A stretch of 45,232 bases of DNA from an uncultured Acidimicrobiaceae bacterium. Lineage in GTDB: Bacteria > Actinomycetota > Acidimicrobiia > Spongiisociales > UBA5794. Under the pieces are notes generated by a model that did not search any database, was not told the origin of the DNA, and worked only from the letters and a program-made list of their open reading frames with translations. Location of the stretch: assembly GCA_964465915.1 (NCBI GenBank), contig CAYXMJ010000002.1, positions 1 through 45,232 on the forward strand, in the 5' to 3' direction. Shown here piece after piece: positions 4,497-41,722 of the stretch; positions within the stretch are counted from its first letter, which is position 1; the number at the start of each line of letters is the position of its first letter. The position numbers were made by a program, and so were the translations under genes.

Positions 4497-4520
4497 GAAG
4501 CCCGCCAATCGGCGGGCTTC
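4497..4520. terminator. perfect 10-bp stem / 4-nt loop hairpin (GAAGCCCGCC aatc GGCGGGCTTC) in a 343-bp intergenic region
   Basis: Read directly from the sequence. An A-rich run (cgaaaacc) lies on the plus-strand 5' side, giving a U-run after the stem on the minus strand. No plus-strand T-tract follows. Confidence 0.35.
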
Positions 4521-30335: not shown

Positions 30336-30413
30336 TCACGGTGACCAACTGGACCGAATCGCGGCAGCGGCGGCGATCACGACCCCGGCGACAATGATCC
30401 CGACGCTTGTCAC
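30336..30413 (-). CDS. unannotated 25-codon single-TM mini-ORF (MTSVGIIVAGVVIAAAAAIRSSWSP)
   Basis: Below the ORF-track size cutoff. The GTG at 30411-30413 overlaps the TGA of the upstream thioredoxin-like gene (GTGA), the same coupling used elsewhere in the operon. Its stop lies 9 nt before the next ATG and fills an otherwise empty 83-nt gap. The peptide has a hydrophobic core, and 19 of the 25 sense codons have G/C at position 3. Confidence 0.4.
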   Translation of the reverse strand: MTSVGIIVAGVVIAAAAAIRSSWSP

Positions 30414-31141
30414 TGCTTTTCGTCTTCTTGATCTTGGTCCGGGTAAAGGCTGGGGTGACCGGGGTAGATGCCGGCAGCCAGCAACTCGCGGTCGACGACG
30501 TCCTCACGATCGGCGTCGGCGCGGGCTTTGCGCCCTCTGCGCTTCTTGGTGTCGTCGAGGGCTTCACCCATCAGGCGTAGCAACTGGTCCCAGGTGCTGG
30601 CCGACCCTTCGCCGGCGATCGATCCGGTCGCTCCATCAACGAGAACAAAGTAGGGCGAGCCCGGTACCTGGTAGTCGTTCCAGGCCTGATCGGACATGAC
30701 CACGGGGTAGTCGCCGGACGCCAGCTTGGCGATGCGGGATGGGCTCTCCTCGTTGTCACCCTTGGTGAGCACGACGAGGCGGGTGGCGCCGAGACCCTCG
30801 GGACCCTTGTCGAACGTCTCCCAGAATTCGGCGCAGCCGAGGCATCCGCTCGAGAGGAAGGCGAGCAGTGTCTTCTGTTTGGCGCCGAGCACTCGGATCC
30901 CGATGCCATCACCCTCCGGTCCGGTGCCCGAGATGTCGTGGGCCTGGATCACTTCGCCGCGCGGGGTCGCCACGGACGGGGCGAAGTTGAGGTCCGGCGT
31001 GCCTTGGTCGTGATCGTGCTCGAGGCCCGCTCCCAGACTGTCGAGTTGGCGGAGAATCTCGGCGTGGCTGCGTAGCAGGCTCGCCACCAGCAGGCCGAGC
31101 AGGAGGATCACAGCAGCCTCGGCGATGATGAGGGCGGTCAT
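30410..31141 (-). CDS. membrane-anchored thioredoxin-fold protein (TlpA/MauD-like) with CxxC
   Basis: N-terminal TM MTALIIAEAAVILLLGLLVASLL and a thioredoxin-like core with the active-site context LLAFLSSGCLGCAEFW. Later come VVLTKGD and GSPYFVLVD, the cis-Pro region. I chose the ATG at 31141, which overlaps the upstream stop (ATGA). Confidence 0.75.
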   Translation of the reverse strand: MTALIIAEAAVILLLGLLVASLLRSHAEILRQLDSLGAGLEHDHDQGTPDLNFAPSVATPRGEVIQAHDISGTGPEGDGIGIRVLGAKQKTLLAFLSSGCLGCAEFWETFDKGPEGLGATRLVVLTKGDNEESPSRIAKLASGDYPVVMSDQAWNDYQVPGSPYFVLVDGATGSIAGEGSASTWDQLLRLMGEALDDTKKRRGRKARADADREDVVDRELLAAGIYPGHPSLYPDQDQEDEKQ

Positions 31142-31758
31142 CTGCAGTCTCCCGCCAAGCATGGCGCGGTCTGTTGACCGGTCTGGTTATCGATCCGCAG
31201 CGAGGTCCCGCAGTCGTCGAACAACTGATACGGCGGCACACAAGTCACTACCCGGCAAGCAACCGGGCCGCTGCATCCGATCTCCGTATGGCATTGGCCG
31301 TAGCGGAAGTAGTTGCAGCACACCCGTCGCCGGTCGCAGGTCGTCTCGTTGCATCGGCATCGGCAGGAGATGCACGACGGATTGCAGAAGCGGCCGTTCT
31401 CGCATCCGTTGGTGCAAGTGCACTGAGGATGGCAATCGATGTAGTAGCGGGCCTTCGGATTGCCGTTCCCGTCACAGCAATAGGTCGAACTATCCGCCCG
31501 CCACCAGCCGCCGACGAACATCCCGGGCGGGCAGCGGTTGATGCCCCGGTTGGTGGTGCAACAGAAGATGGTGTAGCCGTTCGAGCATTCGGAGTACGGA
31601 CCGCACACTGCGGCATAGGCCGTCATCGGGCGCAGGATGAAGTCGAGTGGCGCGGTCAGCAATGCCGAGCCGACGACAGCGACCCTGGCCAGGAAGGAGC
31701 GGCGGCTGTGCTCTCCACCGAGCGCTCGAGCGGTTCGTTCTGCAAGGCGGCGACTCAT
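31138..31758 (-). CDS. Tat-signal, extremely Cys-rich secreted protein with methylamine dehydrogenase light chain (MauA)-like N-terminal half
   Basis: 206 aa. Twin-arginine signal HSRRSFLARVAVVGSALL with an AYA-AV cleavage-like site. The mature part is about 157 aa with 26 Cys. The Cys spacing C-x5-C-x7-CC-x8-CPPG-x5-WW resembles MauA as I recall it (C-x5-C-x6-C-x-C-x7-CPPG-x7-W). The ATG overlaps the mauE-like stop (ATGA). Confidence 0.75.
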   Translation of the reverse strand: MSRRLAERTARALGGEHSRRSFLARVAVVGSALLTAPLDFILRPMTAYAAVCGPYSECSNGYTIFCCTTNRGINRCPPGMFVGGWWRADSSTYCCDGNGNPKARYYIDCHPQCTCTNGCENGRFCNPSCISCRCRCNETTCDRRRVCCNYFRYGQCHTEIGCSGPVACRVVTCVPPYQLFDDCGTSLRIDNQTGQQTAPCLAGDCR

Positions 31759-32297
31759 GCTTCGGCCCTCACTGGGATGACGGTGGGTAGGACGTTGAGG
31801 ATCAGATATGCGAACCACGTGCCCAGCGCCACAAATGCGACAAGGACGAGGCCGGCCAGGGGGTCGTTGGAGATCGCGTCGATGATGCCCGTCACCGGAG
31901 CCGCGACGGCACCAAGCGCAACGGCGGCCGCGGCAAGGTTGAGGATGAGGTGCGCCCATGTCGGCGGGGTGTCGTCACGCCCGAAACACCCGCACGAGGC
32001 GACGACGCCGCCCTTGGCGAGGGCATACCCGACAAAGCCGGCGAATCCGAGGTACACGATGGCGACGAGGAGAGCACTGGTGCTGCCGCCGAACAGCAGG
32101 GCGTAGCCCCCAATCGTGATCTCGGCCAACGCCATGAGCCGTACCAGCAGAGGAGATCCGGGCAAGCCGACAGAGCGAAGGGCTCGCGCCGTCTCGTCGG
32201 GACGGGCGAGCTTTGGTGCCCCCGCCACGATGAGGAGGAGGGAGGCGATGTAGAGCGGTCCAGCCATCGTCTGCATCGGTGGCGGGGATAGTGGCAC
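31755..32297 (-). CDS. MauE/DoxX family redox-associated membrane protein
   Basis: 180 aa, about four TM helices. N-terminal ...LLLIVAGAPKLARPDETARAL and the conserved CGCFG motif (VVASCGCFGRDD), typical of the MauE family. The start codon is uncertain (GTG 32297 or internal Met codons). Confidence 0.8.
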   Translation of the reverse strand: MPLSPPPMQTMAGPLYIASLLLIVAGAPKLARPDETARALRSVGLPGSPLLVRLMALAEITIGGYALLFGGSTSALLVAIVYLGFAGFVGYALAKGGVVASCGCFGRDDTPPTWAHLILNLAAAAVALGAVAAPVTGIIDAISNDPLAGLVLVAFVALGTWFAYLILNVLPTVIPVRAEA

Positions 32298-32333: not shown

Positions 32334-32555
32334 TCAGCGGTAGAAGAGGCTGGAAACGACGATGGCGGCGCCGGCGGCAGCGACCAGCAGCGACACAAAG
32401 CGGATCAGGAAACTGGTCGAAGCCATGAGACCCCCGCTTGATCGCGAGTACCGCGACGGCCAATGGGCGGCAAGGCGATCCACCAGGTCGAGGGAGTTGG
32501 AGGCCAGCGCCACGCCGATGAGGAGAACGGCCACGCCAAAGACGATGAGGCCCAT
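32334..32555 (-). CDS. small two-TM membrane protein (73 aa), probable first gene of the operon
   Basis: The internal ATG at 32555 is preceded by AAGGAG with 6-nt spacing. The product is MGLIVFGVAVLLIGVALASNS...FLIRFVSLLVAAAGAAIVVSSLFYR. The stop lies 36 nt before the mauE-like start. Confidence 0.5.
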   Translation of the reverse strand: MGLIVFGVAVLLIGVALASNSLDLVDRLAAHWPSRYSRSSGGLMASTSFLIRFVSLLVAAAGAAIVVSSLFYR

Positions 32556-32663
32556 CTTGACTCCTTGCTTGTTCCTCCCATGATACGAGTGATCGGCGAT
32601 GGCGAACAGAGCATTCTGGATCCTCCACGACTTGGGCACGCTGCCTTGGGTAGCATGCACAAC

Positions 32664-33077
32664 ATGCCCGACCAACCCTCGGTTCTGTTTCTCTGCACCC
32701 ACAACGCCGGGCGGTCGCAGATGGCGGCTGGGTGGCTTCGGCACCTTTCGGGAGGAGCGGTCGCGGTGTATTCGGCAGGCTCGAACCCCGGTAGTGAGGT
32801 GAATCCGGTGGCCGTTGCGGCGATGGCCGAGGTCGGCATCGATATCGCCTCGGCTCAGCCGCAGAAGTGGACCGACTCCATGGTACGCGTCGCCGACGTG
32901 ATCGTCTCAATGGGGTGTGGCGACACGTGCCCGGTCTACCCGGGCAAGAGATACCTCGATTGGGAACTCGACGATCCCCACGGTGCCGGGATCGACGCGG
33001 TGCGTCCGATCCGCGATGAGATCGAGGTCAGGATCCGCGGGCTGCTGGCCGAGTTGGAAGTCACCCCCGTTGCCTGA
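32664..33077 (+). CDS. arsC: arsenate reductase, low-molecular-weight phosphatase family
   Basis: P-loop LFLCTHNAGRSQMAAGW and a downstream Cys pair in MGCGDTCP. 137 aa. There is no Shine-Dalgarno sequence; a TAGCAT -10-like hexamer ends 7 nt before the ATG. Confidence 0.85.
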   Translation: MPDQPSVLFLCTHNAGRSQMAAGWLRHLSGGAVAVYSAGSNPGSEVNPVAVAAMAEVGIDIASAQPQKWTDSMVRVADVIVSMGCGDTCPVYPGKRYLDWELDDPHGAGIDAVRPIRDEIEVRIRGLLAELEVTPVA

Positions 33078-33090
33078 ACAGCAGGTCTCC

Positions 33091-33780
33091 GTGGGGAGGA
33101 GGGTTACCGCAGAGTTCGTCGGCACAGCGTTCTTGCTTGCCGGGATCGTGGGTTCGGGCATCATGGCCAGCAGGCTGACCTCGGATTCCGGGCTCCAGCT
33201 GCTCCAAAACGCCTTGGCCACGGGCGCTCTGCTCACGGCTCTCATCCTCGCCTTTGGCCCGCTTTCGGGAGGACACTTCAACCCAGTTGTGACGGGCGCC
33301 GACTGGTGGTTTGGTGGTCTGCCCCGCAGCGAAGCTCTTGCCTACGTTGGGGCGCAACTCGGCGGCGGAATCCTCGGCGTCATGATTGCGAACCTGATGT
33401 TTGATCTCGACGCCATAGCCTGGTCGACCACCGACCGCACCGGCGTCAACCTCTGGTTGGCCGAGGTCGTTGCCACCTTTGGGCTCCTCATGGTCATCTT
33501 TGGTGTGGTTCGCTCGGGCCGGCACGGCGTTGCTCCCTTTGCCGTCGGCGCCTACATCGTCGGTGCGTTCTATTTCACCTCATCGACCAGCTTTGCCAAC
33601 CCGGCGGTGACCGTGGGTCGGATGTTCTCGGATACGTTTGCCGGCATCGCCCCCGCATCGGCGCCCGGGTTCGTTGTCGCCGAGATCGTCGGCATGGTCC
33701 TGGCGGTGGTTGCGGTGCGGTTCCTGTATCCCGATGTCGATGAACATGCGGTGGAAGTCGTCGTCCCCCACGGCGGCTAG
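33091..33780 (+). CDS. MIP/aquaporin family channel (probable arsenite/metalloid channel by context)
   Basis: Two NPA-type motifs (HFNPVVT and FANPAVT) and six TM segments. I chose the GTG at 33091, 13 nt after the arsC stop. Confidence 0.85.
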   Translation: MGRRVTAEFVGTAFLLAGIVGSGIMASRLTSDSGLQLLQNALATGALLTALILAFGPLSGGHFNPVVTGADWWFGGLPRSEALAYVGAQLGGGILGVMIANLMFDLDAIAWSTTDRTGVNLWLAEVVATFGLLMVIFGVVRSGRHGVAPFAVGAYIVGAFYFTSSTSFANPAVTVGRMFSDTFAGIAPASAPGFVVAEIVGMVLAVVAVRFLYPDVDEHAVEVVVPHGG

Positions 33781-33787
33781 GAGGCCG

Positions 33788-34459
33788 TCAGCCACCTCGT
33801 TGCAGGATGTGATCCGTTACCGCGGTGAGGTCAGGTCCGACGATGTCGGGCGGCGGGAAGAGCGGATTGATCACCATCGACGGTCTGGTGATGTAGGCGC
33901 CGGCACAGCCGGCCCGCATGGCTCCGGCGATGTCCCAGTCGTGAGCGGCCACCATGCGCATCCTGGCGGTGGTCACGCCGAGCCGATCGGCGGCCATCTG
34001 GTAGACCGCCGGCGCGGGCTTGAACTGTCCGGCTGGCGCCACCGACATGATCTTGTCGAAGGCGTGGGCGATCCCCGCATTGGCGAGTTGGGTCTCTGCC
34101 GCGTCCTGTGGCGAATTTGTCAGCGCTGCGATCCGCAACCCCGCGGCGCCGAGACGCTCGAGATTCGGGGCGACATCGGCATGAGGGGGGAGAGCGGCCA
34201 TGGTGCCGGCAACGGCAGCACGATCGGCTGCCGACACAGCCACCTGGCGCGAGGCGGCGACCATCTCGAGTGAAGCGCCGCCGACGGTGACGAAATCGTG
34301 GTAGTCGCCGATGATGGTGAGGGTCAACGCGTTGCGCAGCACGAGTCCGAACCACTGGCGACGCACCGCAGCGTCGCCGAAGATGCGTTCGAAGTGAGGG
34401 TCGAGGGCCCCCAAATCGAGCAGGGTCTCGTTGACGTCGAACACGAGAACTTTGGTCAT
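33788..34459 (-). CDS. haloacid dehalogenase type II (HAD superfamily)
   Basis: N-terminal VLVFDVNETLLDL (nucleophile Asp motif of type II dehalogenases), LTNS, and the C-terminal AAHDWDIAGA motif. Confidence 0.85.
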   Translation of the reverse strand: MTKVLVFDVNETLLDLGALDPHFERIFGDAAVRRQWFGLVLRNALTLTIIGDYHDFVTVGGASLEMVAASRQVAVSAADRAAVAGTMAALPPHADVAPNLERLGAAGLRIAALTNSPQDAAETQLANAGIAHAFDKIMSVAPAGQFKPAPAVYQMAADRLGVTTARMRMVAAHDWDIAGAMRAGCAGAYITRPSMVINPLFPPPDIVGPDLTAVTDHILQRGG

Positions 34460-34543
34460 CCGTGCCTCCAGGTTGGCCCCGCCAAACCTAGTGGTCCGCG
34501 GGCCGGCGGCGCGCCATGGCTCGCACGGTCGCTAGAGTTCCTA

Positions 34544-34560
34544 TTGCAAGGGAGTTGCAA
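34544..34560 (+). promoter_or_regulatory. perfect Nur-box-like operator TTGCAA-N5-TTGCAA (within the 25-bp palindrome CCTATTGCAA gggag TTGCAATAGG, 34540-34564)
   Basis: Read directly from the sequence. It is AT-rich in a GC-rich background. The right arm abuts or overlaps the AGGAGG RBS (34562-34567) of the GTG start at 34573. The motif matches the published Streptomyces Nur consensus tTGCaa-N5-ttGCAA. Confidence 0.6.
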
Positions 34561-34572
34561 TAGGAGGACGGC

Positions 34573-35253
34573 GTGCACATACCCGATGGGTTCATCAACC
34601 CCAGTGTTTCGGCGGCCGCAGGCGTGGTAGCAGCCGGGGGCTTCGGCGTTGCAGTGCGCCGGGCCCGCTCCTACCTCACGGAGCGTCTTGTTCCGATGGC
34701 CGCCCTGGTTGCCGCCTTCGTCTTTGCGGCCCAGATGGTCAACTTCCCCGTCCTCCCCGGCATGAGCGGTCACCTCATCGGCGCTGTGCTTGCCGCCGTG
34801 CTGGTCGGCCCGGCCGCCGGATACATGGTGATGAGCATTGTCCTCATTGTCCAAGCGCTCGTCTTTGCCGACGGAGGGCTGTCGGCTCTCGGGCTCAACA
34901 TCGTGAACATGGCGCTGGTCGGCGCGGTCGGTGGCTACTACCTGTTCCGTTCCTTGATGCGGGCCACCGGCAATCGCCGCGGCCGCGTCCCAATGGTGGC
35001 CGGAATCGCTGCCTTTGCGTCGGTACCGCTCGTGGCGGTTGCCTTCGCCATCGAGTTTGCCATCGGCGGTACCGCCGAGAGCCTGTCGATCGGGACCATT
35101 CTCTGGGCGCTGCTCACCACGCACACCCTGATCGGGATTGGCGAAGGGCTCATCACTGGACTCGTGGTTGGGGCGGTGATGGCCGCACGGCCCGACCTCG
35201 TCTACGGCGCGCCGAGCTTTGCCGGGCGGAGAACCACGGAGTCGGTCCAATGA
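34573..35253 (+). CDS. ECF transporter substrate-capture subunit CbiM/NikM
   Basis: The N-terminal MHIPDGF is the metal-ligating N-terminus of CbiM/NikM. 226 aa with seven TM segments. Confidence 0.9.
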   Translation: MHIPDGFINPSVSAAAGVVAAGGFGVAVRRARSYLTERLVPMAALVAAFVFAAQMVNFPVLPGMSGHLIGAVLAAVLVGPAAGYMVMSIVLIVQALVFADGGLSALGLNIVNMALVGAVGGYYLFRSLMRATGNRRGRVPMVAGIAAFASVPLVAVAFAIEFAIGGTAESLSIGTILWALLTTHTLIGIGEGLITGLVVGAVMAARPDLVYGAPSFAGRRTTESVQ

Positions 35254-35582
35254 GTTCTGTGGGGCGGCGGCGCAACCTTGTGCTGTTCGGCGGGGCGCTG
35301 GCTCTGGTCATCGTCACCGCCGTCGGGCTCTCCCAACTGGCTTCCGATCAACCCGATGGTCTCGAATTCGTCGCCGAACAAGAAGGGTTCGCCGGTTCTG
35401 CAGATGAGCACGGACTGTCCGAGGCGCCGCTGGCCGGCTATGGAGAGAACCTCGACGGAACCGACTCGACCAACGTTGCAGTCGCCGGTCTTGTCGGCGT
35501 CCTTGTCACCTTGGGTCTTGGGTTTGGGGTCTTCTGGCTCATCAGGGCGGGTGGCTCACCACCGGAATCGGCCGGGAGCTGA
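35250..35582 (+). CDS. PDGLE domain protein (CbiN/NikN-equivalent small subunit)
   Basis: Literal PDGLE motif (SDQPDGLEFVAE) flanked by two TM helices. The ATG overlaps the cbiM stop (ATGA). Confidence 0.75.
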   Translation: MSSVGRRRNLVLFGGALALVIVTAVGLSQLASDQPDGLEFVAEQEGFAGSADEHGLSEAPLAGYGENLDGTDSTNVAVAGLVGVLVTLGLGFGVFWLIRAGGSPPESAGS

Positions 35583-35583
35583 C

Positions 35584-36348
35584 GTGGCGGGCGGCCATGT
35601 CCACGCCCTCTTCCGGCACGGCGACTCGGCTCTCCACCGGGTGGCGCCTCAGGTCAAGATCGTGGCGGCCTTTGGGTTTGTGCTCGCCGTGGTCGTCACC
35701 CCTCGGGAGGCCTTCTGGGCGTTCGGCCTGTATCTCGCCACGCTGGCGGTCCTGATCGCTATCGCCGGGCTCCCGCCCGGCTATGTGGCGCGCCGCATGG
35801 TCGTCGAGATCCCGTTTCTGATTGTTGCCGTGTTGCTTCCGTTGTTTGGGTCGGGCGATCGCATCGAAGTCCTCGGCATGTCGCTGTCCGAGCAAGGGCT
35901 CTGGGACATGTGGAACCTCCTGGCCAAGGCCACCCTCGGGCTGCTCACCGCCATTGTGCTCGGGGCGACCACCCAGGTGCCCGATCTGCTCAAGGGTCTG
36001 GATGCTCTCCACGTTCCCGGTGTTGTCACCGCCATCATTTCGTTCATGGTCCGCTACGTCGATGTGATTCTCGGCGAGTTCTCCCGGATGCAGGTGGCGA
36101 TGGCGTCGCGCGGTCATGAGGTCCGGTCCGTCATGGGGTGGCGCCCTTACGCCAAGACGTTTGGGGCCATGTTCGTACGCACCTATGAACGGGGCGAGCG
36201 GGTCTACCTGGCGATGGCGTCGCGGGGCTACTCGGGAACCATGCCGGCGTCGCTGCGGGTGCCCGCTCCCGCGGCTCAGTGGGTTGCTGCGTTCGGCCTG
36301 GTCGCCGCCGCGTGGCTGGTGGCACTGCTGGGATGGGCCCAACAATGA
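35584..36348 (+). CDS. ECF transporter transmembrane (T) component CbiQ
   Basis: I chose the GTG at 35584, 1 nt after the upstream stop. The CbiQ-like sequence includes the ...MASRGHEV... and ...ERVYLAMASRGY motifs. The upstream part of the 356-aa track ORF overlaps the PDGLE gene in another frame. Confidence 0.8.
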   Translation: MAGGHVHALFRHGDSALHRVAPQVKIVAAFGFVLAVVVTPREAFWAFGLYLATLAVLIAIAGLPPGYVARRMVVEIPFLIVAVLLPLFGSGDRIEVLGMSLSEQGLWDMWNLLAKATLGLLTAIVLGATTQVPDLLKGLDALHVPGVVTAIISFMVRYVDVILGEFSRMQVAMASRGHEVRSVMGWRPYAKTFGAMFVRTYERGERVYLAMASRGYSGTMPASLRVPAPAAQWVAAFGLVAAAWLVALLGWAQQ

Positions 36349-37142
36349 CGGCCCCCGTGATCGCAGTGGACGGCCTCGACTTCGTCTATCCGGACGGCAC
36401 CGCAGCCCTCGAGGGGATCCATCTCCACGTCCACCGGGGTGAGCGCATCGCGTTGCTCGGGCCGAACGGAGCCGGCAAGACGACCTTGGTGCTCCACCTG
36501 AACGGTATTCACCTGCCCCAGCATGGCACCGTCGACGTCTCGGGGCTGCGACTCGACGCCGACTCGCTGATGGAGATTCGGCGCAGGGTCGGCATCGTCT
36601 TCCAGGATCCCGACGATCAGCTGTTCATGACGACGGTTCGCGAGGACGTCGAGTTTGGTCCCCGCAACCTCGGGCTCATCGGTGCTGAGTTGGACCGCAG
36701 GGTTGATCGTGCCCTCGCCGCGGTCGAGGTGGGTGATCTCGCTGATCGACCGCCGTCGCACCTTTCGTTTGGGCAGAAGCGTCGGGTGGCCATTGCGGGA
36801 GTGCTTGCCATGGACCCGGAGATCATCATTCTCGACGAGCCGACCTCCAACCTCGATCCGGCCAGCCGGCGCGAACTCACCGCGACGTTGCGGAGCCTGG
36901 ATGTGACCCAGATGATCGTCACCCACGACCTGCTGTACGCCCTCGAACTGTGTGAGCGCACCGTGATCCTCGATCGGGGTTCCATCGTTGCCGACGGACC
37001 AACCCGTGAGTTGCTTGCCGACACGGACCTACTCGAGCGTCACCGGCTGGCCCTGCCCGCCGGAGTACGTCTCGAATCACGTTCTGGCGTGGCTGAGGTG
37101 CCAAAAACCGAACCCGAGCCACGCAAGAACGGATTTGTCTAG
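36345..37142 (+). CDS. ECF transporter ATPase CbiO
   Basis: Walker A GPNGAGKTT, Q-loop, signature LSFGQKRR, Walker B IIILDEPTSNLD. The ATG overlaps the cbiQ stop (ATGA). Confidence 0.9.
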   Translation: MTAPVIAVDGLDFVYPDGTAALEGIHLHVHRGERIALLGPNGAGKTTLVLHLNGIHLPQHGTVDVSGLRLDADSLMEIRRRVGIVFQDPDDQLFMTTVREDVEFGPRNLGLIGAELDRRVDRALAAVEVGDLADRPPSHLSFGQKRRVAIAGVLAMDPEIIILDEPTSNLDPASRRELTATLRSLDVTQMIVTHDLLYALELCERTVILDRGSIVADGPTRELLADTDLLERHRLALPAGVRLESRSGVAEVPKTEPEPRKNGFV

Positions 37143-37609: not shown

Positions 37610-38053
37610 TCAATCCCGTAACAGCCAGGCCTGGGCTTCCTTTTCGTGGTCGACGAAGGTGTTCCAACCCTGTTCGCCGAGGACCTCGGAGATGAACCCA
37701 TTCTGGAATGGAATCCGTCCCGAGAAACCTGTGAACCCAGCGGCCGCCTCGGTGATGCAAGCCATGTTGTTGCTGGTGGCGTTGCGGCCGGTGAGCATGC
37801 TGGAGCGAGTCGGCGAGCACAATGCGGTGGTGTGGAAGTTCGAGTAGCGCAGCCCGTTGTCGGCGATCCGGTTCATGGTCGGCGTCTCGATCGGGCCACC
37901 GAACACATCCATGGCGCCGTAGCCGACGTCATCCCACACGATCATCAGGACGTTGGGGGCACCGTCGGGAGCCTTGGGTTGAAGGAAGCGGGTCCAGTCT
38001 TCGACAGAGTCACGGATATCGACGTTGACGACGCCACGGAACGGCTCGGTCAT
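37610..38053 (-). pseudogene. arylsulfatase N-terminal remnant (147 codons of a protein normally several hundred aa long)
   Basis: NVLMIVWDDVGYGAMDVFGGPI and the sulfatase signature TTALCSPTRSSMLTGRN are intact. Similarity ends after GWNTF, and a stop follows 14 codons later. The good RBS (GAGGAG) is retained. Confidence 0.75.
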
Positions 38054-38866: not shown

Positions 38867-39295
38867 TCAATGCGGTGGATTCTCGGGAACGCTGTCGGGT
38901 TCCTTGGCGGCCGTGAAGCGCAACTCGCCGACGTCCTTGACGTTCCAGCACAACGTGGCGCCCTCGGCCACGGTCAGCCGCAGCGGACCGCCCAGGTCGG
39001 CAGGCAACGGGCTGCCGTTCAGGGCAAAGGCGAGCCAGCCTCCCCGGCGCAGCGTGGCGATGGGGATCGAGGCCGTGTAGCCACCATCGCGGCTGGCGAC
39101 GGTGCAGTGGGTAGCCGTCGCCGCCGGTGCGGCGAGGGCAACGATCGGGGCCATCGCTACTGCAGTTCCGGCGGCGCCGGGCGCCACAGCGGCCGCCTCT
39201 GCAACGACACCAGGCAGCGCGGCAATCTCATCCCATTCGATGTTGCCGGTACGGCCGGCAAGACCGGTGACCCGCAATCCGGTCGAGGTCGTCAT
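38867..39295 (-). CDS. small sulfite-oxidase-family (molybdopterin-binding oxidoreductase) domain protein
   Basis: WLAFALNGSPLPADLGGPLRLTV...WNVKDVGELRF resembles the Oxidored_molyb core (NGEPLP..HGxPLRLVVP...KWV..I). I chose the ATG at 39295, which overlaps the upstream stop (ATGA). Confidence 0.5.
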   Translation of the reverse strand: MTTSTGLRVTGLAGRTGNIEWDEIAALPGVVAEAAAVAPGAAGTAVAMAPIVALAAPAATATHCTVASRDGGYTASIPIATLRRGGWLAFALNGSPLPADLGGPLRLTVAEGATLCWNVKDVGELRFTAAKEPDSVPENPPH

Positions 39296-40137
39296 GGGCG
39301 AGGGGGACCTTCCATCACCCGGGCCAGCCATTCCTCCGGGCTTCCCGCCGTGCCGGGGATCCAGCCCTCACGCCACCAGGTGGCCCCGGCGTCTTCGAGC
39401 GCAGCGAGGTAGTCCCCATGGCGGTCGGCTTCATCGAGGGCGGCCCCGCCGGGGGCGACGTCGAAGTGGTGGTCGATCTCGCGGTATTCCCTTATGTAGG
39501 CGACGATCTCGGCAAGGACCTCGGGGGTCATGGGCTCGAACTCGTAGCCATCGGAGATGATCGGGGCGACACCGTCCCAACAAGCGGCCCGTTGGAAGGG
39601 TCGTCGCTTCGGCCACATTCCGGCCACCCAGATGGGGATCCGTGGCTTCTGGATGGGGGTCGGCAGGAACGTGACAGGCTCGACCTGGTAGTGATTGCCC
39701 TCGAACGAGAAGGCCTCGCCGCTCCACAGGCCCGTGAGGACGGCGAGGCCCTCGTCGAGCATGTCCGCTCTGGTCCGCAGGTCTTCCTCTTCGTGGAACC
39801 GGGTGAACTCGGGGTCGGTCGGCCAGCCGAGCCCCACGCCGAGGATGAAGCGCCCTTGGGAGAGCAAGTCCATGCTCACGGTCTCCCGGGCCAGCTTCCA
39901 CGGATGACGGCGGGGGATCGGGGTGACCATCGGCATCAGGGTGATTCGCTCGGTAACGGTGGCGGCGGCGGCAAGCGAGATCCACGGATCGGCTACCTCG
40001 GCCCCATCCCACACGATGATGTGGTCCCAGATCGACAGGCCGTCCCAGCCGACGTCCTCGATTCTGCGGGCAAACTCGGCTACCTCGCCGGGATCGGACC
40101 AAACGCCGAAGTTGGGGATGTCGACTGCATACTTCAT
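39292..40137 (-). CDS. LLM-class (luciferase-like) flavin/F420-dependent oxidoreductase
   Basis: MKYAVDIPNFG...GWDGLSIWDHI...GRFILGVGLGW...IPIWVAG are typical of LLM class F420-dependent oxidoreductases. I chose the ATG at 40137; an AAGGTGGTG purine-rich tract ends 5 nt upstream. Confidence 0.8.
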   Translation of the reverse strand: MKYAVDIPNFGVWSDPGEVAEFARRIEDVGWDGLSIWDHIIVWDGAEVADPWISLAAAATVTERITLMPMVTPIPRRHPWKLARETVSMDLLSQGRFILGVGLGWPTDPEFTRFHEEEDLRTRADMLDEGLAVLTGLWSGEAFSFEGNHYQVEPVTFLPTPIQKPRIPIWVAGMWPKRRPFQRAACWDGVAPIISDGYEFEPMTPEVLAEIVAYIREYREIDHHFDVAPGGAALDEADRHGDYLAALEDAGATWWREGWIPGTAGSPEEWLARVMEGPPRP

Positions 40138-41692: not shown

Positions 41693-41722
41693 GAGGGGGC
41701 GGTCCGGATGGACCGCCCCCTC
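41693..41722 (-). terminator. intrinsic terminator-like hairpin, 13-bp perfect GC-rich stem (GAGGGGGCGGTCC ggat GGACCGCCCCCTC)
   Basis: It lies 20 nt downstream of the stop (41742) of the EEP-family gene. On the minus strand it is followed by UCGUUCUGG. It separates that gene from the lyase operon. Confidence 0.6.

Follow-up and report, generated by a model that had tools for sequence, protein, structure and literature searches.

The DNA analyzed here, a stretch of 45,232 nucleotides (nt) from an uncultured Acidimicrobiaceae bacterium (assembly GCA_964465915.1, contig CAYXMJ010000002.1) which we call the window, carries a four-gene importer operon of the energy-coupling factor (ECF) type with a perfect inverted repeat directly in front of its first gene. 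The locus raises the question of what recognizes this repeat, and whether the operon imports cobalt, as its default annotation says, or nickel. We consider it highly probable that the palindrome is the operator of a Nur-type repressor, a nickel-sensing member of the Fur family, which would control the importer (M, a PDGLE-type N, Q and O) and whose target operon would most likely carry nickel. What we observed directly is the site, the fact that it occurs only once in the window, its conservation in front of orthologous operons, and Nur-like genes linked to such operons, while nickel-dependent binding of Nur at nikM is taken from the Streptomyces coelicolor literature and would apply here by analogy.

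The letters at 34540-34564 are CCTATTGCAAGGGAGTTGCAATAGG. The original prediction had described a perfect palindrome of 10+10 nt at this place, and a repeat finder extends it by one base on each side, to two 11-nt arms (34539-34549 and 34555-34565) which are 100% complementary around a 5-nt spacer (Table 1). As was also predicted, its core is identical to the S. coelicolor Nur consensus, tTGCaa-N5-ttGCAA, derived from Nur footprints at sodF, sodF2, nikA and nikM (PMC2691836), and its right arm runs into the ribosome-binding site (RBS) of the M gene. The palindrome ends 8 nt 5' of the GTG start codon (34573), within an intergenic region of 113 bp (34460-34572) that reaches up to a divergent HAD-hydrolase gene (33788-34459, minus strand). 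The window has a single exact TTGCAA-N5-TTGCAA and 100 dinucleotide shuffles of it had none, with about 0.0004 occurrences per window expected from base composition. Only three distinct perfect palindromes with arms of at least 10 nt were found in the window, the other two being GC-rich and terminator-like, so chance does not explain the site and was rejected. Scored with a position weight matrix made from related sites, 34539-34565 reaches 27.8 bits and the runner-up in the window 1.7 bits. Near-identical DNA (98.9-99.9%) is found on eight metagenome contigs, all of which have the palindrome.

To follow the box beyond this organism we used 80 related genome loci (designated by L numbers; about 900 kb of DNA), mostly from Acidimicrobiia and other Actinomycetota (Nanopelagicales/Planktophila, Parafrankia, Nakamurella and others), with a few records labelled otherwise (Syntrophales, cyanobacteria, Acidobacteria). 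All 80 encode a relative of the M protein, and matches to PDGLE, Q and O follow in the same order in 75-76 of them (the PDGLE subunit itself was found in 75). A box of at least 14 bits lies no more than 130 nt upstream of M in 62 of the 80 loci, in addition to the window, most commonly at position -29 (23 loci), which is also its position in the window, with a range of -23 to -106. In the whole set 71 sites reached 12 bits or more with the matrix, and only about five of them are not upstream of M. As the matrix was trained on these same sites, the test was repeated with the strict published consensus: with at most one mismatch there were 15 matches in the upstream 150 nt versus 4 elsewhere, a 291-fold enrichment, and with at most two mismatches the enrichment was 89-fold. 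Conservation upstream of orthologous transporters, which had been set beforehand as a test of the original prediction, was therefore found. When the upstream regions of the closest relatives are aligned, the sole conserved block is cTTATTGCrA-N5-TyGCAATAAGG, running into the Shine-Dalgarno sequence; the overlap of box flank and Shine-Dalgarno sequence, ATAAGGAG, is present in relatives as well, and the family consensus is a box of approximately 10-5-10 (cTTATTGCrA...TyGCAATAAg).

Several departures from this pattern were seen. At three loci the box upstream of M has the same arms and a 4-nt spacer, TTATTGCAA-CCTC-TTGCAATAA and similar (L026:5960-5985, L032:5950-5975, L054:5945-5970). Their Nur-like genes are convergent downstream and the most similar of all to S. 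coelicolor Nur (41-46% identity), and a one-base change of half-site spacing inside one regulator family is unusual. Second high-scoring boxes lie away from M at L013:4840-4864, between a ROS/MucR-like open reading frame (ORF) with a His-rich segment (SDHHDHPTHAGHHDH) and an ORF without assignment, and at L065:2929-2953, at the start of a gene for a secreted fn3-domain protein.

The type of regulator to be expected is suggested by the relatives. When Escherichia coli Fur, Mycobacterium tuberculosis Zur and S. coelicolor Nur were used as tblastn queries, about 30 of the 80 loci turned out to have a Fur-family gene adjoining the operon, and 28 of these genes, scoring at least 55 bits against Nur, were analyzed. 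In six of the seven closest relatives (L001-L004, L006, L007) this gene immediately precedes the operon in the same orientation, the box lying in the interval that separates it from M; in the seventh (L005) it lies about 1.8 kb upstream, and at other loci it is divergent upstream or convergent downstream. The linked regulator genes that were tested belong to PF01475, and the protein of L001 matches S. coelicolor Nur (3EYY) at 1e-27, the next Fur following at 1.6e-18. An et al. (2009, PMC2691836) showed for S. coelicolor Nur that His70, His72 and His126 make up a nickel-specific site, that DNA binding requires each of them, and that only Nur orthologues conserve them. This triad is kept in 24 of the 28 linked regulators, and the DNA-contact residues Tyr56/Arg57 in all 28. 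A triad-bearing, Nur-like regulator is linked to the operon in each of the seven closest relatives. The presence of Nur-like regulators in the lineage, part of the original prediction, holds for relatives only, with linkage in 28 of 80 loci and the triad in 24 of 28. Clustering of neighboring genes over the 80 loci, which is noisy owing to antisense ORFs in high-GC DNA, gave no recurrent partner other than the Fur-family gene. A Nur-like profile yielded two more contigs, L209 with the order FUR-CbiM-PDGLE-CbiQ-ABC and L212 with FUR 3 kb upstream of CbiM, and from these two arrangements it follows that the linkage of nur and operon can loosen. Separately, six linked regulators (L011, L013, L016, L019, L025, L030) keep H70/H72/H126 and have lost residues of the common M-site (H33, H88 and/or H90).

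Table 1. Proposed operator, candidate promoter element and genes of the importer operon, with positions in the window
Feature	Position	Strand	Description
Candidate -10 hexamer TAGAGT (TANNNT)	34533..34538	+	directly 5' of the palindrome; putative
Palindrome TCCTATTGCAA-GGGAG-TTGCAATAGGA	34539..34565		perfect 11-5-11 palindrome; proposed operator for the dimer of a Nur-type (Fur-family) repressor
Core TTGCAA-GGGAG-TTGCAA	34544..34560		6-5-6 box, equal to the published S. coelicolor Nur-box consensus (PMC2691836)
Shine-Dalgarno sequence AGGAGG	34562..34567	+	5 nt before GTG; first 3-4 bases within the right arm of the palindrome
S component NikM/CbiM	34573..35253	+	226 aa, N-terminus MHIPDGF; Pfam PF01891, 197 bits
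Small two-helix subunit, 'N' position	35250..35582	+	PDGLE domain (motif QPDGLEF), Pfam PF13190; start overlaps the M-gene stop
T component NikQ/CbiQ	35584..36348	+	254 aa, GTG start; PF02361; TIGR02454 149 bits (cut-off 111.8); gene call on near-identical contigs
ATPase NikO/CbiO	36345..37142	+	265 aa; PF00005; TIGR01166 219.6 bits (cut-off 211.8); start overlaps the Q stop

What has to be set against a Nur operator comes from the window itself and from a search that started from the motif. As was predicted, tblastn with the three queries detected no Fur-family gene in the window; with the near-identical contigs this extends to 10 kb beyond either end, and a profile search returned 849 Nur-like proteins, none of them tied to the source organism. 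We infer that Nur is encoded elsewhere in the source genome. The other points come from metagenome contigs, in which the exact 9-5-9 palindrome TTATTGCAA-N5-TTGCAATAA was found at no fewer than 120 loci (L089-L208). The gene classes were counted among the matches listed, taking genes that start -60 to +150 nt from the site: a NikM homologue, mostly 26-27 nt downstream, at at least 21 loci, a NiCoT/NicO nickel permease at at least 7 (PF03824 confirmed for three), a Fur-family gene at at least 45, COG0523 and ZIP genes at at least 4 each, ZnuA at at least 2, FecCD at at least one, and none of these classes at at least 41. Still among the matches listed, about 38 of the 45 Fur-family genes begin 0-45 nt downstream of the palindrome, the nickel triad is present in 0 of the 44 aligned Fur-family proteins beside it, and the partner genes of these triad-less regulators are ZIP, ZnuA, FeoB and FeoA. 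This suggests that they are autoregulated Zur-like or Fur-like regulators with a Nur-type box. At two of the listed loci a divergently transcribed nicotianamine synthase gene lies across the box from the Fur-family gene. The motif is thus not specific for Nur, and since the same palindrome precedes triad-less Fur-family genes, a sequence match alone names neither the regulator nor the metal. The original prediction had used the consensus match as evidence for nickel; the match is exact, but it is weaker evidence than was assumed, because Fur paralogues paired with zinc and iron genes use the same palindrome.

The best surviving alternative is accordingly that the palindrome serves another member of the Fur family (a Zur-like, Fur-like or cobalt-sensing paralogue) and that the operon responds to a metal other than nickel. 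Besides the triad-less genes just described, it is favored by COG0523 and ZnuA genes that follow the palindrome in some high-GC contigs, by the four operon-linked regulators out of 28 that have no H70/H72/H126 triad (L014, L021, L041, L063) and by there being no regulator gene visible near the operon of the window. We nevertheless regard it as unlikely. Where the palindrome stands at M-PDGLE-Q-O operons of Actinomycetota, 24 of the 28 linked regulators are of the Nur kind, those of all seven closest relatives included, and what the operon encodes is an ECF importer of the Ni/Co type whose S unit resembles NikM2, not a zinc or iron transporter. NiCoT nickel permeases are found behind the same box: at seven loci (L093, L099, L104, L114, L178, L199, L202), mostly of GC 0.61-0.71, the palindrome is 8-72 nt upstream of such a gene, and in the 19 contigs with GC of at least 0.58 among the matches listed NiCoT (6) and NikM (2) make up the largest class. 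Two unrelated nickel importers, NikM and NiCoT, behind one box support a nickel-responsive operator. The Zur-like and Fur-like operators of the metagenome contigs share with the site in the window the identical 9-5-9 palindrome, immediately upstream of the regulated gene. They differ in that the gene behind them is that of the regulator itself, with ZIP, ZnuA or FeoA/B next in line, in that these regulators have no triad, and in the mostly lower GC of their contigs.

One further regulator gene, which we take to be unrelated, was noticed in the surroundings. About 3-7 kb past the 3' end of the window, on a near-identical contig (L087:13733-16122), a CsoR/RcnR-family gene (PF02583) lies between genes for a rhodanese and a cysteine desulfurase; judged by this gene context, its product probably senses persulfide rather than nickel.

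The genes for M, PDGLE, Q and O abut or overlap, one after another downstream of the palindrome. The M protein aligns from its first residue with the nickel S component TtNikM2 (PDB 4M58; 82.8 bits), and with the cobalt CbiM of Rhodobacter capsulatus (RcCbiM, 5X3X, N-terminus MHIMEGY) at only 44.5 bits. The ligands Met1-His2 and His67, plus Gln94, are conserved in the alignment with TtNikM2. As the free N-terminus is a metal ligand in the NikM/CbiM family (ligand roles in PMC3945884), the start codon of M is fixed at 34573. Compared with species-representative genomes, the M protein is closest to proteins from metagenome-assembled genomes of Acidimicrobiia (70-71% identity). The small subunit, predicted to be of the PDGLE type, does contain this domain; it gave no Pfam CbiN match and matches NCBIfam families named CbiN only below threshold (29.5 bits, cut-off 191). 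It may correspond to NikN. Zhang et al. described NikN as nickel-specific and unrelated to CbiN (PMC2667541). As for neighbors in related loci, L022:4779-5909 has a gene for an hypB-like nickel-chaperone GTPase, followed by a Fur-like gene and then M, and at L049:9484-9882 a homologue of sodN, the gene of nickel superoxide dismutase (Ni-SOD), adjoins the operon.

That the operon should instead be an ordinary CbiMNQO cobalt importer for B12 synthesis, as in the default annotation, with the palindrome incidental, has very little probability in our view. The Pfam and NCBIfam names do read CbiM, CbiQ and cbiO, NikM-type S units can bind Co(II), and TtNikM2 binds cobalt too, in crystals (PMC3945884). 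CbiMNQO systems under cobalamin riboswitches also have homologous M, Q and O proteins and the same N-terminal Met-His metal site. Some related loci, moreover, adjoin a gene that might belong to B12 metabolism: at six (L008, L009, L015, L027, L061, L071) a large fused gene comes before the operon; it includes a MeaB-like GTPase domain and may encode an IcmF-type, B12-dependent mutase. None of these six loci has a canonical 6-5-6 box, which counts against the Nur reading. They have instead a strong promoter-like element, TTGACG...TATACAGG, with scattered TYGCAA half-sites, and a Nur-like gene bearing the nickel site convergent downstream. Yet the M protein reaches the cut-off of no CbiM equivalog in NCBIfam (best 161.2 versus 219 bits; TIGR00123 73.5 versus 184), PDGLE takes the place of CbiN, and conservation of the palindrome is far too strong for an incidental sequence. 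No cobalamin riboswitch was found by Rfam in the whole window at the gathering score or in 34300-34700 at E<=10, as had been predicted for the region upstream of M, nor in 12 related loci without a box. Annotation of about 36 other ORFs of the window gave no B12 gene, nickel enzyme or Fur-family regulator. Nickel is favored over cobalt because of the type of regulator in the relatives, the similarity to NikM2, the missing riboswitch and the hypB and sodN neighbors at two loci, and the substrate is therefore most likely nickel. NikMNQO-like nickel uptake under Nur-like control, as originally predicted, is in this way supported by the conservation of the site, the Nur-like linkage, the NikM2 similarity and the missing riboswitch.

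How the operator would act depends on where transcription starts. Among the close relatives, L001-L007 and L080 have a TANNNT hexamer that begins 4-13 nt 5' of the box; its counterpart in the window is TAGAGT. Because a sigma-70 consensus scan of 34300-34700 gave no full promoter, a further point against the proposed control, the -10 assignment follows only from this hexamer common to the closest relatives, and the overlap of operator and promoter is likewise a putative one, drawn from TAGAGT. With TAGAGT as the -10 element transcription would start inside the left arm of the palindrome. When nickel is sufficient, a Ni-loaded Nur dimer would occupy both TTGCAA half-sites and so cover the DNA from the likely start of transcription through the short 5' leader into the beginning of the RBS, and since the operator directly follows TAGAGT the bound repressor would exclude RNA polymerase. 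When nickel is scarce the repressor would leave the DNA and the transporter would be made. The regulator would act in trans, from a gene outside the window. In S. coelicolor, repression by Ni-loaded Nur comes about through its binding across the promoter (Kim et al. 2013, PMC3919588).

A different arrangement was seen at low-GC, freshwater Planktophila-like loci (L029, L039, L042, L044, L046, L051, L056, L062 and others). Here the box reads ATGCrA-N5-TTGCAT. Its position is -29 throughout, there is no Shine-Dalgarno sequence after it, and a TANNNT hexamer (e.g. TAACCT) overlaps its right flank, 6-7 nt before ATG, which suggests leaderless mRNA with a -10 element inside the operator.

The inverted repeat could also act as RNA, i.e. 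as a hairpin of the 5' leader that hides the first bases of the RBS or stabilizes the transcript. As RNA, 34539-34565 would form an 11-bp stem with a 5-nt loop, the stem including AGG of AGGAGG, and the minimum free energy of the 62-nt region is -20.3 kcal/mol. However, any perfect DNA palindrome folds in this manner, and the fold is ordinary (z-score -1.85, matched by 13 of 200 shuffles). The TGC/GCA bases hardly change, being paired in 60-63 of 63 sites, and do not covary, and the variable core position (A or G) changes largely independently in each arm (A-T 26, G-C 12, G.T 12, A.C 8), the half-sites being non-identical in 39 of 63 sites. Invariant TGC/GCA, independent variation of the arms and an ordinary fold are the pattern of half-sites of a dimeric protein and not of a conserved hairpin. 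In addition, the distance to the start codon (-23 to -106) means that the RBS is often uninvolved, a start within the left arm, as TAGAGT would give, makes the full stem impossible, and the motif co-occurs with the gene of a DNA-binding regulator. An RNA role is consequently most improbable. An operator for NikR was rejected, as no GTATGA-N16-TCATAC site is present near the operon.

Some further features of the window were noticed. The two other palindromes are a GC-rich, terminator-like hairpin at 4497-4520, GAAGCCCGCC-AATC-GGCGGGCTTC, and a terminator-like stem of up to 14 bp at 41693-41722, formed from GGGGGCGGTCC with a GGAT loop. Downstream of the operon, a 147-aa ORF (37610-38053, minus strand) matches only the first third of a sulfatase domain and a 154-aa ORF (38867-39331, minus strand) only the C-terminal half of a molybdopterin oxidoreductase domain; both look truncated and may be gene remnants. 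On the other side, a minus-strand cluster of three ORFs at 30410-32297 includes a MauE/DoxX membrane protein, a cysteine-rich protein with a possible twin-arginine signal (SRRSFLARV) and a third ORF with a CxxC motif, the last two with no Pfam match, and is followed at 32463-33780 by a low-molecular-weight phosphatase/ArsC-like gene and a MIP channel gene.

The closest known system is Nur of S. coelicolor with its box at the nikM, nikA, sodF and sodF2 promoters (Ahn 2006; An et al. 2009; Kim et al. 2013). There, Nur binds the promoter of nikM (nikMNOQ) in a nickel-dependent manner (PMC2691836), and the locus in the window appears to follow the same design in core operator, type of target and, in the relatives, subfamily of regulator. 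The two have an identical 6-5-6 core in front of the leading gene of an ECF-type M/N/Q/O importer, the site would likewise lie at or beside the promoter, and the linked regulators of relatives keep both the nickel-site histidines and Tyr56/Arg57. Differences are the other host class, the longer 11+11 palindrome and its overlap with the RBS, and the fact that the present site is known from sequence. In S. coelicolor nur adjoins ygfZ (PMC4531530), whereas in many of the relatives studied here it is physically linked to the operon, and the operon of the window differs from those relatives in having no linked regulator gene. The proposed control also resembles that of NikR-controlled importers (nikABCDE of E. 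coli; predicted at nikMNQO in other phyla), in which a nickel-loaded repressor shuts off an importer at its promoter, although NikR is a ribbon-helix-helix protein with its own type of operator and Nur a Fur-type winged helix. From the riboswitch-controlled CbiMNQO systems it differs in the missing riboswitch, in PDGLE instead of CbiN, in an M protein nearer to NikM2 and in the proposed protein operator.

A Nur box at a nickel ECF operon was already known experimentally from Streptomyces, and here it is found conserved across the phylum. A comparative study of 2009, in which Nur was not considered, left 13 of 15 actinobacterial Cbi/NikMNQO systems unassigned (PMC2667541). With about as much doubt as conviction, we propose that TTGCAA-N5-TTGCAA is an old operator type of several Fur-family subfamilies which in Actinomycetota marks a phylum-wide nickel regulon (NikM-PDGLE-Q-O, NiCoT and, often beside the operon, nur) that reaches Acidimicrobiia, freshwater Nanopelagicales/Planktophila and low-GC marine lineages, the window coming from a lineage that has kept the operator intact and lost its linkage to the regulator gene. 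If this is true, the 13 unassigned systems would go to nickel. A match to the Nur consensus does not by itself identify the metal, and the comparison provides a wider operator model (approximately 10-5-10) together with a set of regulator-operator pairs. The Nur regulon, experimentally established only in Streptomyces, would be extended to another class. What is annotated by default as 'cobalt transport' cbiMNQO, here and in many uncultured Actinomycetota, is most likely a nickel-repressed nickel importer, which bears on estimates of nickel demand (Ni-SOD, urease, hydrogenase) for soil, freshwater and marine actinobacteria.

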